NCBI GenBank assembly: GCA_937928585.1
Contig: CALEZK010000602.1
Span: forward strand, 1 to 55,881
Length of the DNA: 55,881 nucleotides
Direction of reading: 5' to 3'
Source: an uncultured bacterium
GTDB lineage: Bacteria > Hydrogenedentota > Hydrogenedentia > Hydrogenedentales > SLHB01
This document shows, one piece after another, positions 11,005 to 21,863 of the stretch (position 1 is its first letter; every line of letters starts with the position of its first letter). Under the pieces are notes generated by a model, which saw only the letters and a program-made list of their open reading frames with translations, did not search any database and was not told where the DNA came from. Position numbers and translations under genes: made by a program.

Positions 11005-13410
11005 TTAGACCTCGGCTTCGGCTTCTACTATTTGTTCTTCGAAGCTGCATTTTTCGAGGGGGCATTTTCTTACGGTGGGTTTGTTTTTGCCTTTGGTGAT
11101 TACGGTCCAGGGGTTGCCGCATTTTACGCAGGGGGTTGCTTTGTCGACTTGGCCGAAGAGGGTGAAGTCGCATTCGGGGTAGCGGTCGCACCCGTAGAAG
11201 CGGCGGCCTCGGGCGAGTTTGCTGACGAGGTCACCGGTGTTGCATTGCGGGCATTTGATGCCGAGTTCCATGGGCTTTGTGAATTTGCACTTCGGGTATT
11301 TTTCGCAGCCGTAGAACTCTTCGCCGCGCCGGCTTTTGCGGATCAAAAGGAAATTGCCGCAGGTCGGGCATTTTTGATCGGTCTTCTTGGGCGGTTCTTT
11401 CGGGCCGGTGTCGACTTTGTTTCCTTCCTTATCCACCTTGTGCGTGTTTTTGCATGCGGGATAGGTGGAGCAGGCGAGGAATTTTCCGAAGCGTCCGACG
11501 CGAAGGACCATCGGCGCGCCGCAGAGATCGCAGACGACGTCGGTGGGTTCGGCGCTGGCTTTTTTCTTGACGCTGATGCGGCCGTCGCACTCTTTGTCTT
11601 TGCAGGCGAGGTAGAGGCCGAAGAAGCCCTGGCGCAGTTCCATGCCTTTTGAACATTTCGGGCAGGTCGGTTCGTCGCCGACGAGTTCGGTGATCATTTT
11701 CTTCTGCGCAACGGACAATACTTTTTCGAACTCGGTATAGAACATGCGAATGAGGTCGTGCCATTCGCGCGTGCCTTCTTCGACGTGGTCGAGGTCGGAC
11801 TCGAGCTGCGCGGTGAAACCGAGATCGAGAATTTCGGGGAAATTCGCGACGAGGAGATCGTTGACCTGATCGCCGAGTTCTGTCGGTTTCAGGCGTCCCT
11901 TTTCGCGCTCGACGTAGCCACGTTCGGTGATCGTGTTGATCGTGGGCGCGTAGGTGCTGGGGCGTCCGATGCCGTTTTCTTCCAGCGCGCGGATGAGGCT
12001 CGCTTCGGAATAGCGCGGTGGCGGTTTGGTGAAATGCTGTTCCGGTTTGAGTTCACGCTCGGTGCATTGTTCGCCTGCGTTCACCTTCGGCAACAGCCCG
12101 GCCACTTCCTCTTCGCTGTCTTTGCCGGTCTGTTTATCTTCGACCGTTTCTTCGTAGAGGATGGTGAAACCCTGGAACTTCATTACCGAACCCGACGCGC
12201 GGAACTCGCAATCCGCCGCGCTGATATCGATGATCGTCTGATCGAGAATCGCGGGCGACATCTGGCTCGCAACGAATCGCCGCCAGATGAGGGTGTACAA
12301 CTTGAGCTGGTCGTCGTCGAGATACTTCGCGACTTTTTCCGGCGTGCGCGACGGCACAGTCGGGCGAATGCCTTCGTGCGCGTCCTGCGCACCCTTTTTG
12401 CTGTTGTAGAAGTTCGGCTTCTCGGGCAGCATCTCGGGCACATGGTTCTCGCGGATGAAGGCGCGCACTTCGTCCAGCGCTTCGTTCGCGATGCGCGTGG
12501 AGTCGGTTCTCATGTAGGTGATGAGACCGTCGGTACCTTCCTCGCCCAGCGCGATACCTTCGTACAACTGCTGCGCGAGAATCATCGTCTTGCGCGGGGA
12601 GAAGCCGAGCTTTCGCGACGCTTCCTGTTGCAACGAACTCGTGATGAACGGTGGATAGGGCCGGCGGCGGACTTCTTTTGTCTCGATGTTTTTGACGGCA
12701 TACTTGGCGCCGTCGAGCCGCTTGAGGATGCTCTGCATCGTCGCTTCGTTGCCGATGACCGCTTTTTCGCCGGCGACGCGGGCAAGGCGCGCGGTAAAGG
12801 TATCGCCGCGAACGGTTTCGAGAAGCGCCTCAAGGGTCCAATATTCTTCGGGGATGAACGCGCGGATTTCCGCTTCGCGCTCACAGACCATGCGCACGGC
12901 CACAGACTGGACGCGCCCGGCGCTCAGGCCCTTCTTCACCGCCCATTGCAGGAACGGGCTAATCTTGTAGCCGACCAACCGGTCGAGGATACGCCGCGCC
13001 TGCTGCGCGTTTACGACGTTGATGTCGATCTCGCGCGGGTGCTTGGTCGCTTCGCGCACGCTGCGCTTCGTAATTTCGTTGAAAACAATACGCTGAATCG
13101 GCTTCTTGAGCTTTTCCAGGAGGGCGGCCACGTGCCACCCGATGGCCTCCCCTTCGCGGTCCGGGTCGGAGGCCAGCAGAATGGAATCCACCCCTTTCGC
13201 GGCCTCTTGCAGGGCCTTGACCGCCTTGGCGGAGTCCTTCAGGGTGACGTATTTGGGCTGGAAATTGTTCTCGACGTCCACGCCGAGATCGCTCTTCGGC
13301 AGGTCGCGGACATGGCCATAGCTGGCCCGGACGACATAGTTCGGCCCAAGAAATTTATTGATCGTCTTCGCTTTCGCAGGCGACTCGACGACGACCAGGT
13401 ACTTGCTCAT
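11005..13410 (-). CDS. topA: DNA topoisomerase I
   Basis: The N-terminal TOPRIM reads MSKYLVVVESPAKAKTINKFLG. It also has DPDREGEAI, the active-site region YMRTDS, and several C-terminal CxxC...CxxC zinc ribbons. Confidence 0.95.
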   Translation of the reverse strand: MSKYLVVVESPAKAKTINKFLGPNYVVRASYGHVRDLPKSDLGVDVENNFQPKYVTLKDSAKAVKALQEAAKGVDSILLASDPDREGEAIGWHVAALLEKLKKPIQRIVFNEITKRSVREATKHPREIDINVVNAQQARRILDRLVGYKISPFLQWAVKKGLSAGRVQSVAVRMVCEREAEIRAFIPEEYWTLEALLETVRGDTFTARLARVAGEKAVIGNEATMQSILKRLDGAKYAVKNIETKEVRRRPYPPFITSSLQQEASRKLGFSPRKTMILAQQLYEGIALGEEGTDGLITYMRTDSTRIANEALDEVRAFIRENHVPEMLPEKPNFYNSKKGAQDAHEGIRPTVPSRTPEKVAKYLDDDQLKLYTLIWRRFVASQMSPAILDQTIIDISAADCEFRASGSVMKFQGFTILYEETVEDKQTGKDSEEEVAGLLPKVNAGEQCTERELKPEQHFTKPPPRYSEASLIRALEENGIGRPSTYAPTINTITERGYVEREKGRLKPTELGDQVNDLLVANFPEILDLGFTAQLESDLDHVEEGTREWHDLIRMFYTEFEKVLSVAQKKMITELVGDEPTCPKCSKGMELRQGFFGLYLACKDKECDGRISVKKKASAEPTDVVCDLCGAPMVLRVGRFGKFLACSTYPACKNTHKVDKEGNKVDTGPKEPPKKTDQKCPTCGNFLLIRKSRRGEEFYGCEKYPKCKFTKPMELGIKCPQCNTGDLVSKLARGRRFYGCDRYPECDFTLFGQVDKATPCVKCGNPWTVITKGKNKPTVRKCPLEKCSFEEQIVEAEAEV

Positions 13411-13741: not shown

Positions 13742-14200
13742 TTAGTGGAAGACGCCGCCTTCGCCGTCCATGACGCCAAAGATGGTCTGTTGCGATTCGA
13801 AATCTCGGTTACCGCAGACCACCCAGGAAATGAGGTAATCGAGCTCGTCCAACCCAATTTCGCTGTCGAAATGGTTAAGGCGATCAAGGATGGCCTCGCG
13901 CTCGATCGGGTCAAGCAAGCCGTAGAACTCAAGACGTGCCAAAGCATTACGCGCTTCCGGCGTAAGTTTGTACTCCTCAAACAGGGACAGCGATCGCGCC
14001 ACCCAAGGGCGGTTTTCCTCGCGGACGGATGGCTGCACGAATCGCGGCGCGATCAACTTCATCGCGGCGTCGATATCGCGCTTGTTGTAGCCTTGGCGGG
14101 TGAGCCAAGTGCGCAATCCAGTCTCGGTAGGGACCCCGTCCGGGTATTCTTCAATTCGCCTGAGGATGACGTCGACGAGCTTCGTAATCGACGCTTTCAT
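13742..14200 (-). CDS. smg: Smg (DUF494) family protein
   Basis: It lies directly upstream of topA, the usual smg position. The sequence (LTRQGYNKRDIDAAMKLI..., LEFYGLLDPIEREAILDRL) fits DUF494. The start is uncertain: ATG 14200 is preferred, 14224 is possible, and the listed 14305 is unlikely. Confidence 0.65.
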   Translation of the reverse strand: MKASITKLVDVILRRIEEYPDGVPTETGLRTWLTRQGYNKRDIDAAMKLIAPRFVQPSVREENRPWVARSLSLFEEYKLTPEARNALARLEFYGLLDPIEREAILDRLNHFDSEIGLDELDYLISWVVCGNRDFESQQTIFGVMDGEGGVFH

Positions 14201-14439
14201 GCAGTTGGGCTCCACGGGGTTCATGTTCGGGGCACGCGCGTGCCCTTGCAGGTATTGTAGGGTCGGGGTGGCGCGGGTGTCAACCGTTCCAGCCCGTATG
14301 CGCACTCATTTCAAGCACGGTGGCTTGTCAACCGATCCGTAACAGGGGCGTTGAAGGTTTGTACCATAGGCGGAGCGGGTCTGTTATTAGACTGCGCAAA
14401 TCGTCCTTGGTTTTCGCGGCATGGCCGGCAGCTTAACGG

Positions 14440-14468
14440 TTGACCACCCATCACCCAGTTGGTATACT
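14440..14468 (+). promoter_or_regulatory. near-consensus sigma-70 promoter TTGACC-N17-TATACT
   Basis: TTGACC at 14440-14445, an exact 17-nt spacer, then TATACT at 14463-14468. It is about 80 nt upstream of the first small peptide ORF. Confidence 0.5.
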
Positions 14469-14969: not shown

Positions 14970-15178
14970 CCCGCCCGTTTTCGAGCTTTCGGCGTCGGGG
15001 CTTTTGCTACATGCAACCGTCCCGGCGCTATTTTTTTGCCGGACTTTGCCGAGGGGGGGGACTTGCAGCGTGCATTCCGGATCGCCAGCGTTTACCATTA
15101 AGGGAACCTGTGCCGGGCAGGCCTATTCGTATTGATTGCGGGTGATTTGGCCAACCGGCCGCATGCAGCACAATCCAC

Positions 15179-15739
15179 ATGATTTCAGGAAAATACACCA
15201 TCATTCGTTCGGCTGAACCGGACGACGCGTACGCCATGTGGCGGCTCTATGATCCGAGCCGTCCGCGCTCGTTTTTGTTGGGGCCCTCGCGCGAGGTGAT
15301 GATTCCAACGCAGGACGAGATGCGCGAGATGCTGGCGCGGCGCGATGTAATTCAAGGTTCGTTTTTTGCGATCGAAGATCGCGCGGGCGAAGTGTTGGGG
15401 TGTTGCGTGCTGCGGGGCGCGAAAGCGGAATCGGATTTTGCGGAAGTGGTCGTCGCGCTAACGGACGAGAGCAGTTACGATTCGCCGGTCGCGGATGAAG
15501 TGTATGAGTTTCTCAAGAAGCTTGGGTTTGTCGACAAGAAACTAAACAAGCTTGTTGCGCACTGCCTGTGCAATGAAACGGGTTATCGCGCGTTTCTTGT
15601 GCGGCACGGTTTCACGAGCGATGGCATTCAGCGGGAAATGGTGTATACCAAGGGCCGTTACTTCGATCTCGAGTCGCTCTCATTGTTTAACAACGCGCGG
15701 ACAGGAGGGGGCAATGGATCTGCTGTTGCGGCGCCCTGA
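15179..15739 (+). CDS. GNAT-family N-acetyltransferase (1 of 3 in tandem)
   Basis: RimJ/RimL-like layout: YTIRSAEPDDAYAMWRLY, then a central beta-strand/helix region, then C-terminal GFTSDGIQREMVYTKGRYFDL. Confidence 0.7.
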   Translation: MISGKYTIIRSAEPDDAYAMWRLYDPSRPRSFLLGPSREVMIPTQDEMREMLARRDVIQGSFFAIEDRAGEVLGCCVLRGAKAESDFAEVVVALTDESSYDSPVADEVYEFLKKLGFVDKKLNKLVAHCLCNETGYRAFLVRHGFTSDGIQREMVYTKGRYFDLESLSLFNNARTGGGNGSAVAAP

Positions 15740-16262
15740 ACGCCCGGACCTGGACATCATTGTTGATTGGATGGGCGATCCCGAGTTTCGTCACTTTCTG
15801 TTTGGCGATAGCGAGCAGCGGCCGCAGCACATGGGCCAGCAGATGCTTGGCGTGATGAGCAGCGCCCTTGCGCTGCCGATGTCGAGCGCGGGCAACCTGC
15901 TGCTCGAGGATCCGGCGCTGGGGACTGTGGGTCTCGTCATGCTGCACGAAGTAAGCTGGCGCAATCGCTCTTGTTTTCTGGGGCTTTATCTTGCGCCGAC
16001 GCATCGCACGCCCGAGATCATCTCGCGCGCGATCGAGACGGTGTTTGCCTATTGTTTCGAGGAGTTGAATTTGCATCGGGCCGCGATTCGCGTGGACGCG
16101 ACCCAGCCTGATTACGGCGTGGCGTGCGAACGCATTGGCGCGGTCCGCGAGTTTGTTTTTCCTGGCCACGCGATGCGCGATGGCAAACCGGTGGATGTAA
16201 TTGGTTTCGGGGTGTTGCGCGTTGACTTTGACGCGCGGCGCGCGGCTACGGCGGGAGCATAG
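15714..16262 (+). CDS. GNAT-family N-acetyltransferase (2 of 3)
   Basis: I place the start at MDLLLRRPERPDLDIIVDWMGDPEFRHFLFGD (ATG 15714, GGAGG upstream). It overlaps GNAT-1 by 26 nt. It shares the SWRNRSC motif with GNAT-3. Confidence 0.75.
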   Translation: MDLLLRRPERPDLDIIVDWMGDPEFRHFLFGDSEQRPQHMGQQMLGVMSSALALPMSSAGNLLLEDPALGTVGLVMLHEVSWRNRSCFLGLYLAPTHRTPEIISRAIETVFAYCFEELNLHRAAIRVDATQPDYGVACERIGAVREFVFPGHAMRDGKPVDVIGFGVLRVDFDARRAATAGA

Positions 16263-16263
16263 C

Positions 16264-16893
16264 ATGGCCCTTAAATCCAGCGTTTTCATTCGCCGCGCGG
16301 ACCGGGAGGATCTTGAGACGATCGTATCGTGGATGGAAGATCCCGCATTTCAACGCTTCCTCTACGGAGACCCCGCGCGATCGCCGAAGCAAATTCGGGA
16401 ACAAATCGTCGGCATGCTGGGCCGATCCGCGGCGCGCACGTTGCCCGGCGGCATTTACTTCATGGCGGACTCGACCAAGTACGGCCCGGTGGGGTTGTTC
16501 AGCGTCGTCAATATGAGCTGGCGCAATCGATCGTGCAATATCGATTCGTACATTTGCGAAGACCGGCGCAACGGCATGTTCAGCACGGTGGCGTTTTATC
16601 GCGTGCTGGAATACTGCTTCCACGTGTTGAACATGAACCGCATCAACATTTACATCTACGGCTTCAATACGCGCTCCTGGCGCATATTTGAATTGACCGG
16701 GGCGAAACAGGAGCTGGTGTTGCGCGAGCACGTCGCGCGGGACGGCGAACTGTACGAGATGTACGGCTACGGCCTCATTCGGCCCGAGTGGGACAAGTTT
16801 CGCGAGTTTTTCCTGAAGCGCTTCAAGGGAATCGATCTGCAAACCATGATCGCGGATCTGAAGAGCGAGGAAGCGGCGAAGGTGTCCACCTGA
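16264..16893 (+). CDS. GNAT-family N-acetyltransferase (3 of 3)
   Basis: ATG 16264 is 1 nt after the TAG of GNAT-2. The sequence IRRADREDLETIVSWMEDPAFQRFLYGD...SWRNRSC...GAKQELVLREHVARDGELYEMYGYG is a clear paralogue of GNAT-2. Confidence 0.8.
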   Translation: MALKSSVFIRRADREDLETIVSWMEDPAFQRFLYGDPARSPKQIREQIVGMLGRSAARTLPGGIYFMADSTKYGPVGLFSVVNMSWRNRSCNIDSYICEDRRNGMFSTVAFYRVLEYCFHVLNMNRINIYIYGFNTRSWRIFELTGAKQELVLREHVARDGELYEMYGYGLIRPEWDKFREFFLKRFKGIDLQTMIADLKSEEAAKVST

Positions 16894-17627
16894 TGGCCGA
16901 GCAATTACTTTGGGGCCTGCTCGCGACACACATCGTGTATTCGCTGTTCGCGAATAGCAGATCGAAAAGCGAACACCCGCAGGGCCTTGCCCGCACCATA
17001 CACGTGCTGTTGCAGGCGCCGCTGCTTTGGGTGTCGGTTTACATCGGCATTCATGCGGGGGAGTTTTCGCGCGAGCTTGTGTCGCCGGTATACATCGTGG
17101 CGGGGTTGCTTGCGGGGCACCTCATATTCGGGTTCTCAATTTTGTTGACGCATCTTTCCTGGCGTGACGCCTGGGCGCATTTTTTTGATTTCGGCCCGTT
17201 ATGGAACTTCACGATGGACAGCCCGGTCGTATTGACGCGCTTCTTCGGCGTGGCGTTTGCGGAGGAACTGATCTGGCGCGTCGCGGCCCAGACGCTCGCG
17301 ATAGAATTCCTTTCGCAATACATGAGCAACACGGCGGCGGCGGCGCTTGGTATCGTATTGATTGCGGCGGGATTTGTCGTCGTACACAAGCATTTCTTTG
17401 AAAATACTTGGTACATATCGGTTGAGTTTGTGGCGTTTGCGCTGTTGATTGGCGCGCTTTATTACTGGACGGGCAGCTTCATCCTCGTAATTATCATTCA
17501 CGCGTTGCGCGATATCGAGATTGCATATCTTGAGTATCTCGGCAAAGTGGAAGAACTCGGTAGCGAAGCGGAAGCCGCGCTTGCCATCGAGCAGGCCTAT
17601 CGTCCGCGGCGAATGGAGAATACATGA
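16893..17627 (+). CDS. CPBP-family (CAAX/Abi-type) intramembrane glutamic protease
   Basis: The start overlaps the GNAT-3 stop (TGATG). It is a polytopic membrane protein with the motifs FAEELIWRVAAQ (EExxxR), VVHKHF and IIIHALRD. Confidence 0.8.
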   Translation: MAEQLLWGLLATHIVYSLFANSRSKSEHPQGLARTIHVLLQAPLLWVSVYIGIHAGEFSRELVSPVYIVAGLLAGHLIFGFSILLTHLSWRDAWAHFFDFGPLWNFTMDSPVVLTRFFGVAFAEELIWRVAAQTLAIEFLSQYMSNTAAAALGIVLIAAGFVVVHKHFFENTWYISVEFVAFALLIGALYYWTGSFILVIIIHALRDIEIAYLEYLGKVEELGSEAEAALAIEQAYRPRRMENT

Positions 17628-18664
17628 GCGCCACCGCCGCAGTGCAGCTCTGCGATGTAGATAAGATATTTCATACGCGCCATTTCTTCACGAAGCACGA
17701 AGAAACGGGCAAGCGCCGCCTTTATTACAAGAAAACGGTGCACGCGGTTGACCATATCTCGCTGGAGATCAAGCCCGGCGAGATTCTTGGTTTGCTCGGC
17801 CGAAATGGCGCGGGAAAAACGACGACGGTAAAGATGATCTCGGGATTGGTCAAGCCGAATTCCGGGACGGTTTACGTTGACGGCATGGATGTCGAGAAGA
17901 AGCGCTTGAAGGTGCTGCGCAAGATAGGCGTGGTGCTGGAAGGGACGCGCACGTGCGTTTGGCCGCTGACGCCGCTAGAAAACCTTTCCTACTTTGGAAA
18001 TCTGCGCGATGTGAAGGGCCCTGTGTTGAAAGAGCGGAGCGCGGAACTGCTGGAGTTCATCGGTCTGAAGGACAAGATGAACGTGGAGGTGCGCAAGCTT
18101 TCGCGCGGCCAGAAGCAGCGCCTGGCCATTTGTATCGCGCTGATTACGGATCCGCCGGTGTTGCTGCTGGACGAGCCGACCACGGGCCTTGATGTGCAGA
18201 GCAGCCGCGCGATCAAGGACAAGCTGATCGAGATGACGCGTGAACGCGGCAAGTGCGTGTTGGTGACGACGCACGACATGAACACCGCGCAGGAAGTTTG
18301 CGACCGCGTGGCGATCGTTCACGATGGGAAACTGGCGGCGTGCAAGCCGACGAACGAGTTGATCGGCCTGTTTTCCGATCAGACGTATCACCTGCACGTT
18401 GATCGTATTCCGGATCTTGCCGGCGTACGCGCGGTGCCGGGCGTGCTGGCCTCTGACGCGCTGGAAGACGAGGGCACTGGGCCGCGCGTTTCGGTTCAGT
18501 TTTGCGCGGACGAGTCGGAGCGTTCTTCCGCGCTTTATTCGGTGATGGAACGCCTTCGAGGCAGCGGCGTCACGCTGCGCTCGATTAACCACGCGCAACA
18601 AACGCTGGAAGACGTGTTTCTTCGCATTACGGAAAAGACCAGCAAGAACGGGGAGAAGGTTTAG
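17624..18664 (+). CDS. ABC transporter ATP-binding protein (ABC-2/DrrA-like)
   Basis: ATGA overlap with the CPBP gene. Walker A is GRNGAGKTT, the signature is LSRGQKQRL, and Walker B is LLLDEPTTGLD. A C-terminal accessory domain is present. Confidence 0.9.
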   Translation: MSATAAVQLCDVDKIFHTRHFFTKHEETGKRRLYYKKTVHAVDHISLEIKPGEILGLLGRNGAGKTTTVKMISGLVKPNSGTVYVDGMDVEKKRLKVLRKIGVVLEGTRTCVWPLTPLENLSYFGNLRDVKGPVLKERSAELLEFIGLKDKMNVEVRKLSRGQKQRLAICIALITDPPVLLLDEPTTGLDVQSSRAIKDKLIEMTRERGKCVLVTTHDMNTAQEVCDRVAIVHDGKLAACKPTNELIGLFSDQTYHLHVDRIPDLAGVRAVPGVLASDALEDEGTGPRVSVQFCADESERSSALYSVMERLRGSGVTLRSINHAQQTLEDVFLRITEKTSKNGEKV

Positions 18665-18666
18665 TT

Positions 18667-19605
18667 ATGGGCTTCTTCCTGGTACTGAAGGCCGAGGTCG
18701 TCCGTTCGATGATTGTGACGCGACGATACTGGTTTGCTACGGTGACGGCGCTGTTTGTGGCGTGCGTTATGTTTTCTGCCTTTATCAATATTTTTCTGTC
18801 CGGGATTGTGGCCGGCGCCGATATGGCAGGCGTTGCCGTGGACCGGGCACTCGGATTGGTCATCGGTATTTTTGCGTTCAGCATGGTTGGCATGTTCAGC
18901 ACGGGTCTTGCAGGCATGGCGCGCAGCGGCGAGCTCGAACAGGTGTATATGAGCCCGCATGGACTCATCACCAACTTCATGGCGCGGTCTACCGTTGCAA
19001 CGGTCTTGAGCATCATAACGTGGACGATACTGTTGATGTTTGTGTCTTCCGCGTTTTCGGCGGAGACAGACGGAGCCAAGGCCGACGAGCAAGTTCAAAC
19101 CGCGCATGCCGATGCGGCGGCTGTTGCGGAAGCTACGCCGACGGAGTCCGCGCCCGGAGCTGCAGGGGAAGATTCGGGAAAGAAAATGAAGGCGGACGGG
19201 AAAATTCACGCCGACCCCTTGCCTATGGTGGTGTTGTTCCTGCTTACGTTTTTCAGCATGACCGGATTCGGCTTCATGATTGGCGGGCTTGTGCTCGTGT
19301 TCAAACAGATAGGCCAGGTTGCGGTGATATTGCGCATGATCATGATGGGCGTTGCGTGGAAAGCGAGTGATGCGCTTTACGATCAACATTGGCTTTTGCA
19401 ATGGGTCGCGCACGCGGTGCCTGTGACGGACGCGGCGATTTGCCTGAAACTGGTTCTGCTGCAAAACTACGGCACGCATATTTTCACGCACCCGTCATTC
19501 CTGTTTCTGCTTGCGAGCGTTGCCATCTGGACGCCGATCGGTTTGATCTGCTTTAAGGCGATGGAGAATTGGGCGCGTAGCAAAGGGACCCTGGGAGCGT
19601 TTTGA
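18667..19605 (+). CDS. ABC-2-type transporter permease
   Basis: It starts 2 nt after the ATPase stop. It has multiple TM segments and an Ala/Asp/Glu-rich loop of about 54 aa in the middle. Confidence 0.7.
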   Translation: MGFFLVLKAEVVRSMIVTRRYWFATVTALFVACVMFSAFINIFLSGIVAGADMAGVAVDRALGLVIGIFAFSMVGMFSTGLAGMARSGELEQVYMSPHGLITNFMARSTVATVLSIITWTILLMFVSSAFSAETDGAKADEQVQTAHADAAAVAEATPTESAPGAAGEDSGKKMKADGKIHADPLPMVVLFLLTFFSMTGFGFMIGGLVLVFKQIGQVAVILRMIMMGVAWKASDALYDQHWLLQWVAHAVPVTDAAICLKLVLLQNYGTHIFTHPSFLFLLASVAIWTPIGLICFKAMENWARSKGTLGAF

Positions 19606-21527
19606 TGAGTCGCGACGCGCTACATCGGTTTGTGGAGAGCGAACGGCGATTTGCCGTCGACCCGGAGACCTGTTTTTGCTTCGAGTGCGACGAGATCTCG
19701 TGGGATGTGCTTGAGTACTATCCGCACGCGTCGGTGAACCGCATCTATCACCTGCTTGGCGAACGCTACAGCGTGAAAGAGCTTGAGGAAGTCATCGGCG
19801 AGCTTGAGTGGCTGCGTTCGACGCGCGCGATTCTCCCCGCGCCGAAAAAGGACGACGTTCAGAAGGAAATCCAATTCGAGCGTGGCCTGAAGCGCGTTGC
19901 TATTTCGCTGCCGCGCGAGGGCACGGAAGCTGCCGTAAAGAAAAAAGGCTGGTTCAGCCAGGGCGCGACCGTGATGTCGAGTTCGGCGCGCGATATTGGC
20001 CATGACGCGATTGCTTTGTTGTTGGGCCGTGCGGGCGAGCAAAAGGAACTCGCCATCGAGTTTGTAGAAGAAGGGTTCATTCATAATCCTGAACTGGTGG
20101 CTGATTTGTGCGCACACGCGATGAAGTGCGGCAAGCTGGCAGGCAAGAAACTGACGGCTTCGGTTTTGATCCAGAACATCGAAGTGTCGAAAGTGCCGGC
20201 CGCGCTGGATGGGCACACCGTGAGCGCCGCCCTCGAGTTTACCGAAACCGCGGACATGCTGGCGCTGTTGCGTCCCTTTGCAAAAATCGCTGGTGAAGCA
20301 TTTGCGCGCCTCGTCAAGATTGTGCAGCCGGACGCGCCGGGCGTGCATGGTCGCATCATCGTGCGGCCGAACCATCCGAATTTCGCGGGCGTTGTCGAGG
20401 AGCTTGAGAAACAAGGCTTCACAACAATCGATTTGGATTTGGACGGCGCATATGTGGCGAATCCCTCATTGAATCCAAGTGAAATGCTCGATGGCCTTCG
20501 CGCCACCGCCGTCTATTACGCGAAGCGGCTGCTTCAGCATAAGTACTATCGCGTCGATCCCATCGCGCCGCTTTTCTATCGGATCTACGATGGGTCGCCT
20601 TCCCGGCGCACGGATCCGGCGGGCACAAATGAATTGGCAGTCGGCGGCGACGGCGGCGTGTATCCGTCGCGGCGCTTGATGGGCGTTGAGGCCTACAAAC
20701 TTGGCACCGTGATGGGTGGCGAGATTGATGAGCGCATCCGCGCGCGGTTCGACGAAGTCGGCGCTTCAACCACGGGGGTATGCCGCCGATGCTGGGCGCG
20801 CAACTTGTGCGGCGGCGGCAATACGGCAGTGCACCACGCGTTGACTGGATCGCACCGCACGCCAAGCGAACCTTGGTGTGAGGCGCAGCGTGCGTGGATG
20901 ATGTCCGCGGTGAGCGCGTTTAATCTGTTGTCGTCACATGGCGTGAATTTCACGCGGGTATATCGCACCTTGACGCGGACGACGCGTCCGTCTCTTCTAA
21001 CCGTGGTGCGCGCGATGTTCCGGATGACAATTGGCATGCGGCCGATTGAAGAAACAGACGCGGAGATGCTGGCCAATTGGGAGAATTGGAACCCTGCTTC
21101 GTATTTCCTGTTCACCGAAGGGGGCATCATGGTCACGACGAAGTATGATCGTGAAATGGACGCGCTGCATCCTTCCGGCGGTGAGCAGGAGATGATTCTG
21201 ATCAAAAAGGACGGCACGGCGATTGGGTTGATTAAGCTGCGGCCCGATCGCGTTCCCGGCGCCGCTCAGGGCTGGCTGTACCTGCATAACGAGGCCGACT
21301 ACGCGTCTGACGAGGTGCGCAAAGGTTTCCGCGCTCTGCTGCGGGAAGCAGGCGGCCAACAGTCTATCCGGAGGTTGACCCTTCCCGCGTCTGCCCAGGA
21401 AGTTGGGTTGCAGAAGTTTCTGGAATCAATTGGTTTTGCGAAAGAGGGCACGCTGCGCGAGGCACTCTTTGCGCACGACACCTATCATGACGTGCACCTG
21501 TATGGTATCGCGACCGACAAGTTGTAG
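19605..21527 (+). CDS. radical-SAM/SPASM maturase-like protein without the CX3CX2C motif, fused to a C-terminal GNAT domain
   Basis: ATG 19605 overlaps the permease stop (TGATG). The region PAGTNELAVGGDGGVYPSRRL...YKLGTV...CRRCWARNLCGGGN...PWCE is colinear with the SPASM/twitch region of anSME-type enzymes. The central part looks like a degenerate radical-SAM barrel (ELAIEFVEEGFIHNPELV in place of F.GGEPLL). The last 170 aa or so are RimJ-like GNAT (IEETDAEMLANW...GFAKEGTLREALF). Confidence 0.65.
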   Translation: MSRDALHRFVESERRFAVDPETCFCFECDEISWDVLEYYPHASVNRIYHLLGERYSVKELEEVIGELEWLRSTRAILPAPKKDDVQKEIQFERGLKRVAISLPREGTEAAVKKKGWFSQGATVMSSSARDIGHDAIALLLGRAGEQKELAIEFVEEGFIHNPELVADLCAHAMKCGKLAGKKLTASVLIQNIEVSKVPAALDGHTVSAALEFTETADMLALLRPFAKIAGEAFARLVKIVQPDAPGVHGRIIVRPNHPNFAGVVEELEKQGFTTIDLDLDGAYVANPSLNPSEMLDGLRATAVYYAKRLLQHKYYRVDPIAPLFYRIYDGSPSRRTDPAGTNELAVGGDGGVYPSRRLMGVEAYKLGTVMGGEIDERIRARFDEVGASTTGVCRRCWARNLCGGGNTAVHHALTGSHRTPSEPWCEAQRAWMMSAVSAFNLLSSHGVNFTRVYRTLTRTTRPSLLTVVRAMFRMTIGMRPIEETDAEMLANWENWNPASYFLFTEGGIMVTTKYDREMDALHPSGGEQEMILIKKDGTAIGLIKLRPDRVPGAAQGWLYLHNEADYASDEVRKGFRALLREAGGQQSIRRLTLPASAQEVGLQKFLESIGFAKEGTLREALFAHDTYHDVHLYGIATDKL

Positions 21528-21569: not shown

Positions 21570-21863
21570 TTAGTCGAGATAGGCGCTTACGCGCGAGGCG
21601 ACGAGTTCGACAACGGACTGCAGTTTGTACGCACCTTCCTGGATTTGCTTTCGGGCCTGCTCGACGCGCGACTTGCGAATTTCGTCGGCGCTGCTTGCCG
21701 CGAGTCTCGCGGCGTCGGCTGCATCCTGGGCTTCGCTGCTAAAGGAAACGTTGTCTGTTGAGTCCGCAACGGTTCGGGACTCGCCACGCTTCGCTGAGCG
21801 CTCTCCAGCCGGAGTCGGCCCCGATGGGGCAGATAAACCGACTATGCCTTGTATACCAGCCAT
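21570..21863 (-). CDS. flgM: anti-sigma-28 factor FlgM
   Basis: 97 aa. The N-terminal half looks disordered. The C-terminal part (IRKSRVEQARKQIQEGAYKLQSVVELVASRV) is typical of FlgM. GGGAGAG lies upstream of the ATG, and a sigma-28 promoter lies upstream of that. Confidence 0.7.
   Translation of the reverse strand: MAGIQGIVGLSAPSGPTPAGERSAKRGESRTVADSTDNVSFSSEAQDAADAARLAASSADEIRKSRVEQARKQIQEGAYKLQSVVELVASRVSAYLD

Follow-up and report, generated by a model that had tools for sequence, protein, structure and literature searches.

The gene at positions 19605-21527 (+) of contig CALEZK010000602.1, from an uncultured bacterium of the Hydrogenedentota, encodes a protein homologous to the SCIFF/ranthipeptide maturase CteB over three consecutive regions: the recognition element (RRE) of enzymes for ribosomally synthesised peptides that are modified post-translationally (RiPPs), the radical S-adenosylmethionine (SAM) barrel and the SPASM domain. 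We analysed positions 1 to 55,881 of this contig, hereafter the window, in which the gene closes a co-directional operon ordered P1-P2-GNAT1-GNAT2-GNAT3-CPBP-ATPase-permease-target. P1 and P2 are precursor-like peptides, and the target protein itself ends in a GNAT (GCN5-related N-acetyltransferase) domain. On balance, we favour the interpretation that the target protein represents an uncharacterised, largely Hydrogenedentota-specific family, derived from a CteB-like maturase, that acts as a non-radical leader-binding scaffold presenting peptides for N-acylation. The operon is probably the mark of a class of modified peptides that has yet to be described.

The target gene is an intact open reading frame (ORF) that starts with ATG and yields 640 amino acids (aa). 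Motif, profile and structure searches divide the product into an RRE, a degenerate radical-SAM barrel, a SPASM remnant that retains only the ligands of the second auxiliary cluster (Aux II), and the GNAT domain. Its junction with the permease gene reads TGATG, such that the permease stop codon and the target ATG overlap by one base, and the target gene of homologous loci also starts on the final base of the permease gene. Read from an in-frame TTG at 19602, the product is the 641-aa form used by a first-pass annotation made from the sequence alone; residue numbers here follow the 640-aa (ATG) form. The protein contains nine cysteines, at positions 23, 25, 28, 169, 175, 393, 396, 402 and 425. 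The first-pass annotation had this count and the contexts of the residues right, and its first three positions agree in 641-aa numbering, but the other six were off by 20-30 residues.

The match to radical-SAM/SPASM enzymes is far above chance by four independent routes. Among NCBIfam models, the SPASM model TIGR04085 recognised residues 339-425 with 32.7 bits against a cutoff of 27, and the best full-length models were those of ScfB-related, SCIFF, nif11-peptide, QhpD and PapB maturases, with E between 1e-15 and 1e-20, the PapB model spanning residues 129-420. All of these maturase matches lay far under their equivalog cutoffs; the SCIFF maturase model TIGR03974, with 68.3 bits against a cutoff of 425, did not reach equivalog level. 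When the single sequence was searched against the PDB with phmmer, CteB (5WGG) was the sole radical-SAM enzyme matched (E 2.7e-16), in two stretches covering residues 6-177 and 339-429. A profile of 33 family members recovered CteB in one stretch (E 1.7e-39), with profile positions 4-433 aligned to residues 5-443 of the CteB chain. The AlphaFold2 model has a mean predicted local distance difference test score (pLDDT) of 79, which exceeds 90 over residues ~131-310 and falls below 50 in the loop 106-124, the expected binding place of the SAM cluster. Strands and helices alternate over ~97-330 of the model, as in a radical-SAM-type barrel, and Foldseek returned CteB 5WGG as its best match (E 6.9e-17, target-normalised template modelling (TM) score 0.64, 494 columns). 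A Pfam scan at E <= 0.1 matched none of PF04055, PF13186 and PF05402, and gave only a weak GNAT match; as Pfam matches are near-absent, the homology is shown here through NCBIfam models, profile searches of the PDB and structure prediction. The first-pass annotation had described the protein as colinear with radical-SAM/SPASM maturases and had proposed comparing a model with CteB; the family profile and the Foldseek result both bear this out, and the relationship extends across residues 90-420, for which a complete lack of similarity would have spoken against the idea.

Comparison with CteB revealed which ligands have been lost and which retained. Published work on CteB assigns C104, C108 and C111 to the radical-SAM cluster, C344, C362 and C413 to the first auxiliary cluster (Aux I), whose open site binds a substrate cysteine, and C400, C403, C409 and C432 to Aux II (PMC10177961); numbering of the PDB chain equals that of the paper plus 3. 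The degenerate partial TIM barrel of the target protein (residues 96-335; 19890..20609, +), delimited by alignments and the model, contains no CX3CX2C, nor does any other part of the protein. Its cluster loop reads ISLPREGTEAAVKKKGWF where CteB has LHISHDCNLRCKYCF, and FVEEGFIH lies opposite the SAM motif FFGGEPMM, so that EEG stands for GGE. Both the loss of the SAM-cluster motif and the replacement of F.GGEPLL by FVEEGFIH had been proposed from the sequence, and both hold in the alignment with CteB.

In the SPASM remnant (residues 336-445; 20610..20939, +), placed by the TIGR04085 match and by alignments, CRRCWARNLCGGGN (encoded by nt 20781-20822) and DPAGTNELAVGGDGGVYPS (nt 20613-20669) align with SPASM elements of true radical-SAM/SPASM enzymes. 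The canonical seven-cysteine motif, CX9-15GX4C-gap-CX2CX5CX3C-gap-C, is reduced to four cysteines, C393, C396, C402 and C425, which align with the CteB residues assigned to Aux II (C400, C403, C409 and C432) and are invariant in every family alignment made. The Aux I ligand positions are occupied by D337 (or by a gap next to it), S355 and N406, and D337 is itself invariant. The first-pass annotation was correct that both cysteines of the CGAG-type element are replaced and that the last cysteine of CX2CX5CX3C has become an asparagine (N406), although its placement of the first was one residue off, since MAFFT sets this cysteine opposite D337 and not P338. Its statement that half of the SPASM cysteines had been lost stands for the three Aux I ligands, but the four that remain are the Aux II set and not an arbitrary half. 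A random loss of half the SPASM cysteines was considered and ruled out, the loss being specific to Aux I.

The cluster motif and GGE are gone in every member examined, so there is good support, at the level of sequence, for regarding the family as catalytically dead where radical-SAM chemistry is concerned, and to this extent the dead maturase envisaged in the first-pass annotation is upheld. The retained SPASM cysteines correspond exactly to the Aux II ligand set; the target protein is therefore probably still an iron-sulphur protein that carries one [4Fe-4S] cluster at Aux II, and not a cluster-free one.

The N-terminal domain and a short linker occupy residues 1-95 (19605..19889, +), delimited by predicted secondary structure and by alignment to CteB residues 5-100, with the last secondary structure element ending at residue 72. 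Strands at 7-11, 14-19 and 24-28 followed by helices at 30-36, 44-51 and 57-72 give the N-terminal ~75 residues the topology of an RRE in the AlphaFold2 model, and they align with the RRE of CteB. The PqqD-like position suggested earlier for the first 80 or so residues is supported by the three strands, the three helices and the CteB alignment, without a PF05402 match. In CteB, the RRE takes up the CteA leader between beta3 and alpha3, in the form of a beta-strand (PMC8326336, PMC6231123). Strand beta3 of the target model carries CFCFEC (C23-x-C25-x-x-C28; 19671..19688, +), located by family alignments and the predicted model, for which the CteB counterpart is GAVHVV. This CxCxxC is invariant in the main family and missing from the most distant fusion members. 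As the genome scan described below used CFCFECD as its search pattern, all of its loci carry the motif, and unbiased counts come from the homologue and representative alignments only. The motif, with or without C169, may form a zinc or iron-sulphur site, and it is conceivable from the sequences that the invariant His3 of the peptide leaders supplies a fourth ligand, making the metal a bridge between enzyme and leader.

Across the family, seven cysteines are invariant and one, C169, nearly so. This retention could fit a protein that is still a redox or radical enzyme, in which the C23xC25xxC28 site, with or without C169, and Aux II carry out electron transfer or SAM chemistry, and non-canonical cluster motifs do exist in the radical-SAM superfamily (ThiC, Dph2, HmdB). 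We nevertheless consider such activity very unlikely: GGE has become EEG, the cluster loop is variable, contains indels and is modelled as disordered, PF04055 is unmatched at the threshold given above, the CxCxxC sits on the beta-sheet of the RRE in the model and not at the top of the barrel, and the distant fusion members do without it.

The missing motifs are a property of the family and not of one sequence. A search of a large protein database gave 303 homologues at E <= 0.001, of which the 120 listed are 50-89% identical to the target protein, almost all ~640 aa long, and derive almost entirely from Hydrogenedentota metagenome-assembled genomes, where their sole annotation is 'SPASM domain-containing protein'. 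Residues 1-470 searched exhaustively with phmmer against 1.84 billion cluster representatives yielded 43 representatives at E <= 1e-30 and a compact set of 596-678-aa proteins, ~33 of them full-length representatives at 28-54% identity, followed from E ~1e-24 and weaker by a tier of ~450-500-aa proteins. CX3CX2C was present in none of the 120 close homologues and in none of the ~33 long-form representatives, and overall some 160 relatives, full-length or representative, are without it. This answers the call for a survey of orthologues made in the first-pass annotation. By contrast, nearly all proteins of the shorter tier have the motif at ~residue 100-130, together with a full CX2CX5CX3C. The barrel is confidently predicted and contains invariant residues, which suggests purifying selection on the scaffold fold. 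That the target gene might be an assembly error or a recent pseudogene of an ordinary SCIFF-type maturase has nothing in its favour beyond the missing motifs themselves, and we give it practically no credence: the ORF is uninterrupted, invariant residues are numerous, the operon is conserved, and the homologue set, the motif survey and at least 100 genomic loci with a relative exclude an artefact.

A joint alignment revealed a graded series that runs from true radical-SAM/SPASM enzymes to the Aux II-only main family. Three distant GNAT fusions at 25-29% identity (P0155, P0156 and P0162) lack CX3CX2C and keep all seven SPASM cysteines, and judged by their sequences they are apparent evolutionary intermediates; two others (P0158 and P0161) have lost the Aux I ligands, and of the three CxCxxC cysteines they carry just two. 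The P0155 gene (locus L086, 9001-10923) lies in the same GNAT-GNAT-CPBP-ABC operon, downstream of rnpA-yidD-yidC-jag-mnmE. Apart from this series, P0191 (472 aa) and P0204 (484 aa) are GNAT-less SPASM relatives without CX3CX2C and without the Aux I cysteines, with a long N-terminal extension and a CGGGS/CAGGS ending, and may represent a second, independent lineage that lacks the radical-SAM motif.

The operon is conserved together with the protein. We scanned one genome per GTDB species and found at least 100 loci with a relative, nearly all labelled Hydrogenedentota, of which 80 were fetched. With the window proteins as tblastn queries, the order GNAT1-(GNAT2)-GNAT3-CPBP-ATPase-permease-target was recovered in 50 of the 59 loci with enough upstream sequence, mostly from representative genomes of distinct Hydrogenedentota species and with unrelated flanks. 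Among the remaining nine, four lack only a detectable GNAT1 and five have a partial operon. Outside the 59, one locus (L040, 1-7001) has only the permease before the fusion gene and unrelated genes upstream, and another (L032, 1-4529), on a contig containing Ns, has no GNAT or CPBP match upstream of the ATPase. A number of loci (L009, L016-L019, L022, L023, L028, L050, L051, L055, L057, L063, L068, L070 and L082) are labelled Nitrospiraceae/Nitrospirales, Bathyarchaeia archaeon, Robiginitomaculum sp. or FCB group; their operon is the same, 37-71% identical to its Hydrogenedentota counterparts, and the labels are probably binning or naming errors and not signs of horizontal transfer.

The C-terminal domain (residues 474-640 and the stop codon; 21024..21527, +) was assigned by Pfam, Foldseek and profile searches. 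Foldseek matched it to AAC(6'), SpeG, RimJ and YdaF (target-normalised TM 0.65-0.80), and a profile of the fused GNAT from 29 loci to YdaF (1NSL), RimL (1S7K, 1Z9U) and RimJ (3IGR) at E 3e-7 to 5e-6; the earlier description of the last ~170 residues as a RimJ/RimL-like GNAT agrees with both the fold and the profile matches. Precomputed Pfam annotation assigns PF13420 to some homologues. Within the operon, the closest paralogue of the fused domain is GNAT1 (hhalign probability 98.8%, E 1e-16), GNAT3 and GNAT2 being more distant. The best-conserved stretch of the whole protein lies in the N-terminal half of the fused GNAT (RPIEExDAxML..WENWN..YF....YDREMDxLHP), the half from which the acceptor site of GNATs is usually built.

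The peptides upstream of the GNAT genes form a family with a common leader. P1 (14550..14747, +; 65 aa, GTG start) has the leader MKHLRTISRTPQLA, a long hydrophobic core and an ...EVKNPSGT tail, and P2 (14820..14969, +; 49 aa) has the leader MKHIRQISVTRAKK, the core ADALADLYNTIWQAWLDFVYTKKNQ and a tail; both were delimited by ORF and locus comparison. Across 46 of the 59 loci, 122 short ORFs (~37-73 aa, 1-6 per locus) precede the first GNAT gene, and all 122 share the leader M-(K/R)-H-(I/V/L)-(K/R)-x-(I/V/L)-(S/T), in which position 2 is K (0.87) or R (0.13), position 3 is always H, positions 4 and 7 are I/V/L and position 8 is S/T, whilst the cores are diverse. P1 and P2, on which the first-pass annotation had suggested activity assays, are therefore members of a conserved leader-bearing family. 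Type B peptides, among them P2, have the core ...(R/K)ADAF(T/S)DFxNAxWRAWxDFxYxKKNE...; defined by regular expression they number 37, in 36 of the 46 loci, and are the last peptide before GNAT1 in each, and seven further loci have an ADA..DF..W.DF..KKNE core as the last peptide. Type A comprises hydrophobic or amphipathic peptides, including P1, which has orthologues at the same position in L007, L008, L010, L011, L014, L015 and L085. Almost all peptides end in a hydrophobic helix followed by K-(E/N/D) and a short polar tail. Most, P1 and P2 included, are cysteine-free, and since they do not have a six-cysteine core, thioether formation is impossible for most of them. Alongside these types, ten loci (L048, L049, L053, L055, L059, L060, L062, L064, L067 and L069) encode a two-cysteine subtype, ...C(T/A)xIxSDYQALLCF..., with conserved cysteines ~12 residues apart, which might be paired in a disulfide or might be left over from the cysteine-rich SCIFF core. 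Short leader-sharing precursors with variable cores, next to genes for a maturase, a protease and a transporter, are the arrangement expected of a RiPP cluster.

The leader resembles that of SCIFF precursors. For comparison we used a sequence which we take to be a SCIFF-type precursor; it scores 89 bits on TIGR03973, and its first 20 residues, MKHIKTLNTKTLKDSVKKGG, match profile positions 1-19. On a position-specific scoring matrix of 113 distinct leaders, MKHIKTLN reached 12.9 bits, a score that only 11 out of 1e6 random N-termini attained; among 896 N-termini of window ORFs, none did. As the resemblance is short and was noticed after the CteB match, we regard it as supportive, not conclusive.

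The most economical reading of these sequences would be that maturase and precursors co-descended as a pair from a SCIFF-like system. The precursors would have lost their cysteines, and the maturase the SAM cluster and GGE, which generate the substrate radical, as well as Aux I, which holds the substrate thiol; with the SAM-binding [4Fe-4S] site, GGE and the substrate-facing Aux I site gone, the family would no longer perform radical chemistry. The maturase would have kept its RRE, a folded barrel and Aux II, and acquired a GNAT. We propose that the RRE binds the MKH(I/V/L)(K/R)x(I/V/L)(S/T) leader of the operon peptides, as CteB does the MKHIK... leader of SCIFF, and that the degenerate barrel holds the core peptide. 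An acyl group, acetyl or longer, would then be transferred by the fused GNAT, alone or paired with GNAT1, and by the RimJ-like GNAT3, the likeliest acceptor being the near-universal C-proximal lysine or an N-terminal amine. Trimming of the leader, or of the short polar tail at the C-terminus, may fall to the CPBP protease, and export of the product or immunity to it may fall to the ABC-2 transporter. We put forward a more specific version only tentatively: a new phylum-wide RiPP-like class in which a SCIFF-type maturase has become an iron-sulphur leader scaffold (Aux II plus the three-cysteine site, possibly completed by His3) that directs GNAT acylation of the C-proximal lysine on cysteine-free helical peptides, the tail then being trimmed by the CAAX-protease-like CPBP enzyme.

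Several observations weigh against acylation on this scaffold, on the acetyltransferase side as well as on the peptide side. The fused GNAT scores 19.7 bits on PF13420, below the gathering threshold of 24.3. The Q/R-x-x-G-x-G/A loop between beta4 and alpha3 is missing: the coenzyme A (CoA) pyrophosphate loop, QGQGI in RimL and EGKGI in YdaF, has become D-Y-A-S-E in the family consensus, with no glycine (NEADYASDEV in the window protein, D565 and Y566 nearly invariant). S141 and E160, which we take to be the proposed catalytic residues of RimL, are not conserved in the fused-GNAT alignment. GNAT1 is also without the loop glycines and has a conserved tyrosine in the matching loop, and not one of the operon's four GNAT domains has the canonical Q/RxxGxG/A. 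For their part, GNAT2 has no glycine in the CoA loop and GNAT3 has one in the window (RRNGMF), which is not conserved. Judged by these loops, the fused GNAT or GNAT1 could be non-catalytic or use a different donor, and the two or three stand-alone GNATs of the operon could perform the chemistry instead of the fused domain. In that case the target protein might be a non-catalytic adaptor, both its radical-SAM part and its GNAT being pseudo-enzymes, which binds leaders and recruits the stand-alone GNATs or passes the peptides to the ABC-2 exporter. In addition to the replaced loops and the low Pfam score, the overlap of its start codon with the permease stop, here and in homologous loci, fits an adaptor, as does the presence, in the same operon, of the closest paralogue of its GNAT domain: RimL-type GNATs are dimers, and a RimL-like heterodimer of the fused GNAT and GNAT1 is possible. 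We judge the adaptor unlikely, if a serious contender, as the strong conservation of the N-terminal half of the fused GNAT (WENWN, YDREMDxLHP) fits an active site better than a passive dimer surface, and the CoA loops of GNATs bind via backbone amides and tolerate the loss of glycines.

On the peptide side, P1, P2 and their leaders matched no NCBIfam model, the SCIFF model TIGR03973 included, at E up to 10, so that the link to SCIFF rests on an eight-residue motif, the similarity being confined to ~8 residues. An MKH peptide is missing beside the operon in 13 of the 59 loci, the most divergent (L078, L079, L083 and L084) among them, and no recognisable MKH-type precursor lies within 9 kb in the P0155 locus. 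Conservation throughout a phylum could moreover mean that the role is one of housekeeping and differs from what is typical of RiPP antibiotics. This conservation and the loci without adjacent peptides bring into view an operon that modifies no peptide, in which the GNATs act on a small molecule, lipid or envelope component handled by the ABC-2 transporter and the MKH peptides are small membrane, regulatory or immunity proteins. P1-type peptides are indeed long and hydrophobic, like small membrane proteins, and GNAT3 is weakly like the sugar N-acetyltransferase PseH (E 8e-10, below cutoff). We think this improbable: the complete RRE and the peptide-maturase architecture are strongly conserved, the leader resembles that of the substrates of the closest characterised relatives, and a leader, variable core and conserved tail, in 1-6 copies directly upstream and with a hairpin after them in the window, are typical RiPP precursor anatomy.

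The remaining parts of the operon are as follows. A sigma-70-like promoter candidate (14440..14468, +; TTGACC, 17-nt spacer, TATACT, extended TG) was picked up by a consensus scan ~80 nt upstream of P1, although such sites are no commoner in the region than in shuffles. The G+C-rich 11-bp hairpin after P2, 140 nt before GNAT1, is followed by a U7 run, UAUUUUUUU (14991..15039, +); its centroid structure has a minimum free energy of -31.1 kcal/mol with a z-score of only -1.65, and the consensus scan for regulatory sites did not pick it up. It resembles an intrinsic terminator or attenuator, which would leave the precursor transcript in excess, an arrangement common to many bacteriocin and RiPP operons. 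GNAT1 (15179..15739, +; 186 aa; PF13420, E 9.8e-12) is present in most loci, whilst GNAT2 (15711..16262, +; 183 aa; PF13302, E 2.1e-11) is confined to the subclade of the window, with a gene at this position in ~9 loci, and the RimJ-like GNAT3 (16264..16893, +; 209 aa; PF13302, E 2.5e-14) is the most conserved operon GNAT, at 47-88% identity in tblastn. The CPBP/Rce1-like intramembrane glutamic protease (16893..17627, +; 244 aa; PF02517, E 1.4e-09), which has weak matches to the myxosortase-type Mrt, and the DrrA-like ABC transporter ATPase (17624..18664, +; 346 aa; PF00005, E 4e-32; TIGR01188, E 2.4e-71) are both conserved with the operon, and the ABC-2 type permease (18667..19605, +; 312 aa; PF12698, E 5.5e-08) completes it ahead of the target gene. 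Upstream of the operon in the window lie a divergent DUF494/Smg-like gene (13742-14305, -) and topA (11005-13410, -), and downstream a convergent flgM, encoding an anti-sigma-28 factor (21570-21863, -); these flanks are not conserved in other genomes.

Should the proposed function be true, this would be the first radical-SAM maturase exapted as a substrate-delivery module for another enzyme chemistry. RiPP discovery leans heavily on radical-SAM/SPASM maturases, which are identified through their cysteine motifs, and the present family indicates that the scaffold can outlive radical chemistry. Genome mining with CX3CX2C filters may miss a whole class of peptide systems. The natural series, from full radical-SAM/SPASM enzymes through GNAT fusions with seven SPASM cysteines and no SAM cluster to Aux II-only proteins with a three-cysteine RRE, opens two testable questions, namely the role of Aux II without radical chemistry and the reuse of leader recognition by another catalytic domain. 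The operon occurs in at least 100 Hydrogenedentota genomes, along with a large and diverse family of small peptides, and is probably important to this uncultured phylum, in a manner comparable to the wide spread of SCIFF in Clostridia. If acylation were confirmed, an RRE-GNAT fusion would provide a compact tool for leader-guided peptide acylation.

Literature searches on SPASM/GNAT RiPPs, pseudo-radical-SAM proteins, inactive radical SAM enzymes and Hydrogenedentota ranthipeptides found no description of the family or of a radical-SAM/SPASM-GNAT fusion, in keeping with the lack of a precedent remarked on in the first-pass annotation. RRE scaffolds, pseudo-enzymes in RiPP pathways and GNAT maturases are known kinds; the domain combination, the Aux II-only SPASM remnant, the three-cysteine RRE and the peptide family appear to be new. 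RimL, RimJ and YdaF (1S7K, 3IGR, 1NSL), the best profile and fold matches of the C-terminal domain, have protein N-termini as substrates; the target domain differs from them in its identity of at most ~20% in the Foldseek matches, in its D-Y-A-S loop and in its fusion to a maturase scaffold. There are also SPASM-bearing relatives of peptide maturases that have no canonical radical-SAM motif and whose genes lie next to those of precursor peptides, for example the SPASM-only 'grasp-with-spasm' maturase TIGR04193 and, in TIGRFAMs/NCBIfam, the SPASM-containing 'pseudo-rSAM protein, GG-Bacteroidales system'. No NCBIfam model of this kind matched the target protein at E <= 0.1, and we know of no GNAT fusion and of no biochemically characterised member among such families.

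GNATs are established RiPP maturases that acylate lysine or ornithine side chains or N-termini (PMC8784127, PMC13647313). The selidamide enzymes KspN, PhaN and NpuN and the N-terminal acyltransferases of lipolanthine, goadvionin and lipoavitide resemble the present system in having a GNAT fold beside leader-bearing precursors and in their dependence on the leader, but they have been described without a radical-SAM or SPASM-derived domain (PMC8784127, PMC13647313). Their precursors are of the NHLP/Nif11 or lanthipeptide type with Gly-Gly cleavage sites, whereas the GNAT considered here is RimL/RimJ-like with a non-canonical CoA loop, its acyl transfer being predicted from sequence. Twitch enzymes (SkfB, BtrN, MoaA) provide a second parallel as natural SPASM derivatives that bind one auxiliary cluster; their Twitch domains, however, are truncated and keep Aux I whilst losing Aux II, the reverse of what we observe (PMC6231123), and they retain the radical-SAM cluster that the target family lacks.

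The closest likeness is to CteB and the SCIFF maturases (5WGG; TIGR03974, NF040492; also PapB, QhpD and Tte1186), with which the target protein shares an RRE, a partial TIM barrel and a SPASM domain, colinear over ~430 residues, as well as all four Aux II ligands. It differs from CteB in the absence of CX3CX2C, GGE and the Aux I ligands, and in its additional C-terminal GNAT and the CxCxxC on the RRE. The operon peptides begin with MKH(I/V/L)(K/R), as SCIFF precursors do, without sharing their six-cysteine core, and the system as a whole is spread through its lineage as SCIFF is in Clostridia (PMC8326336).

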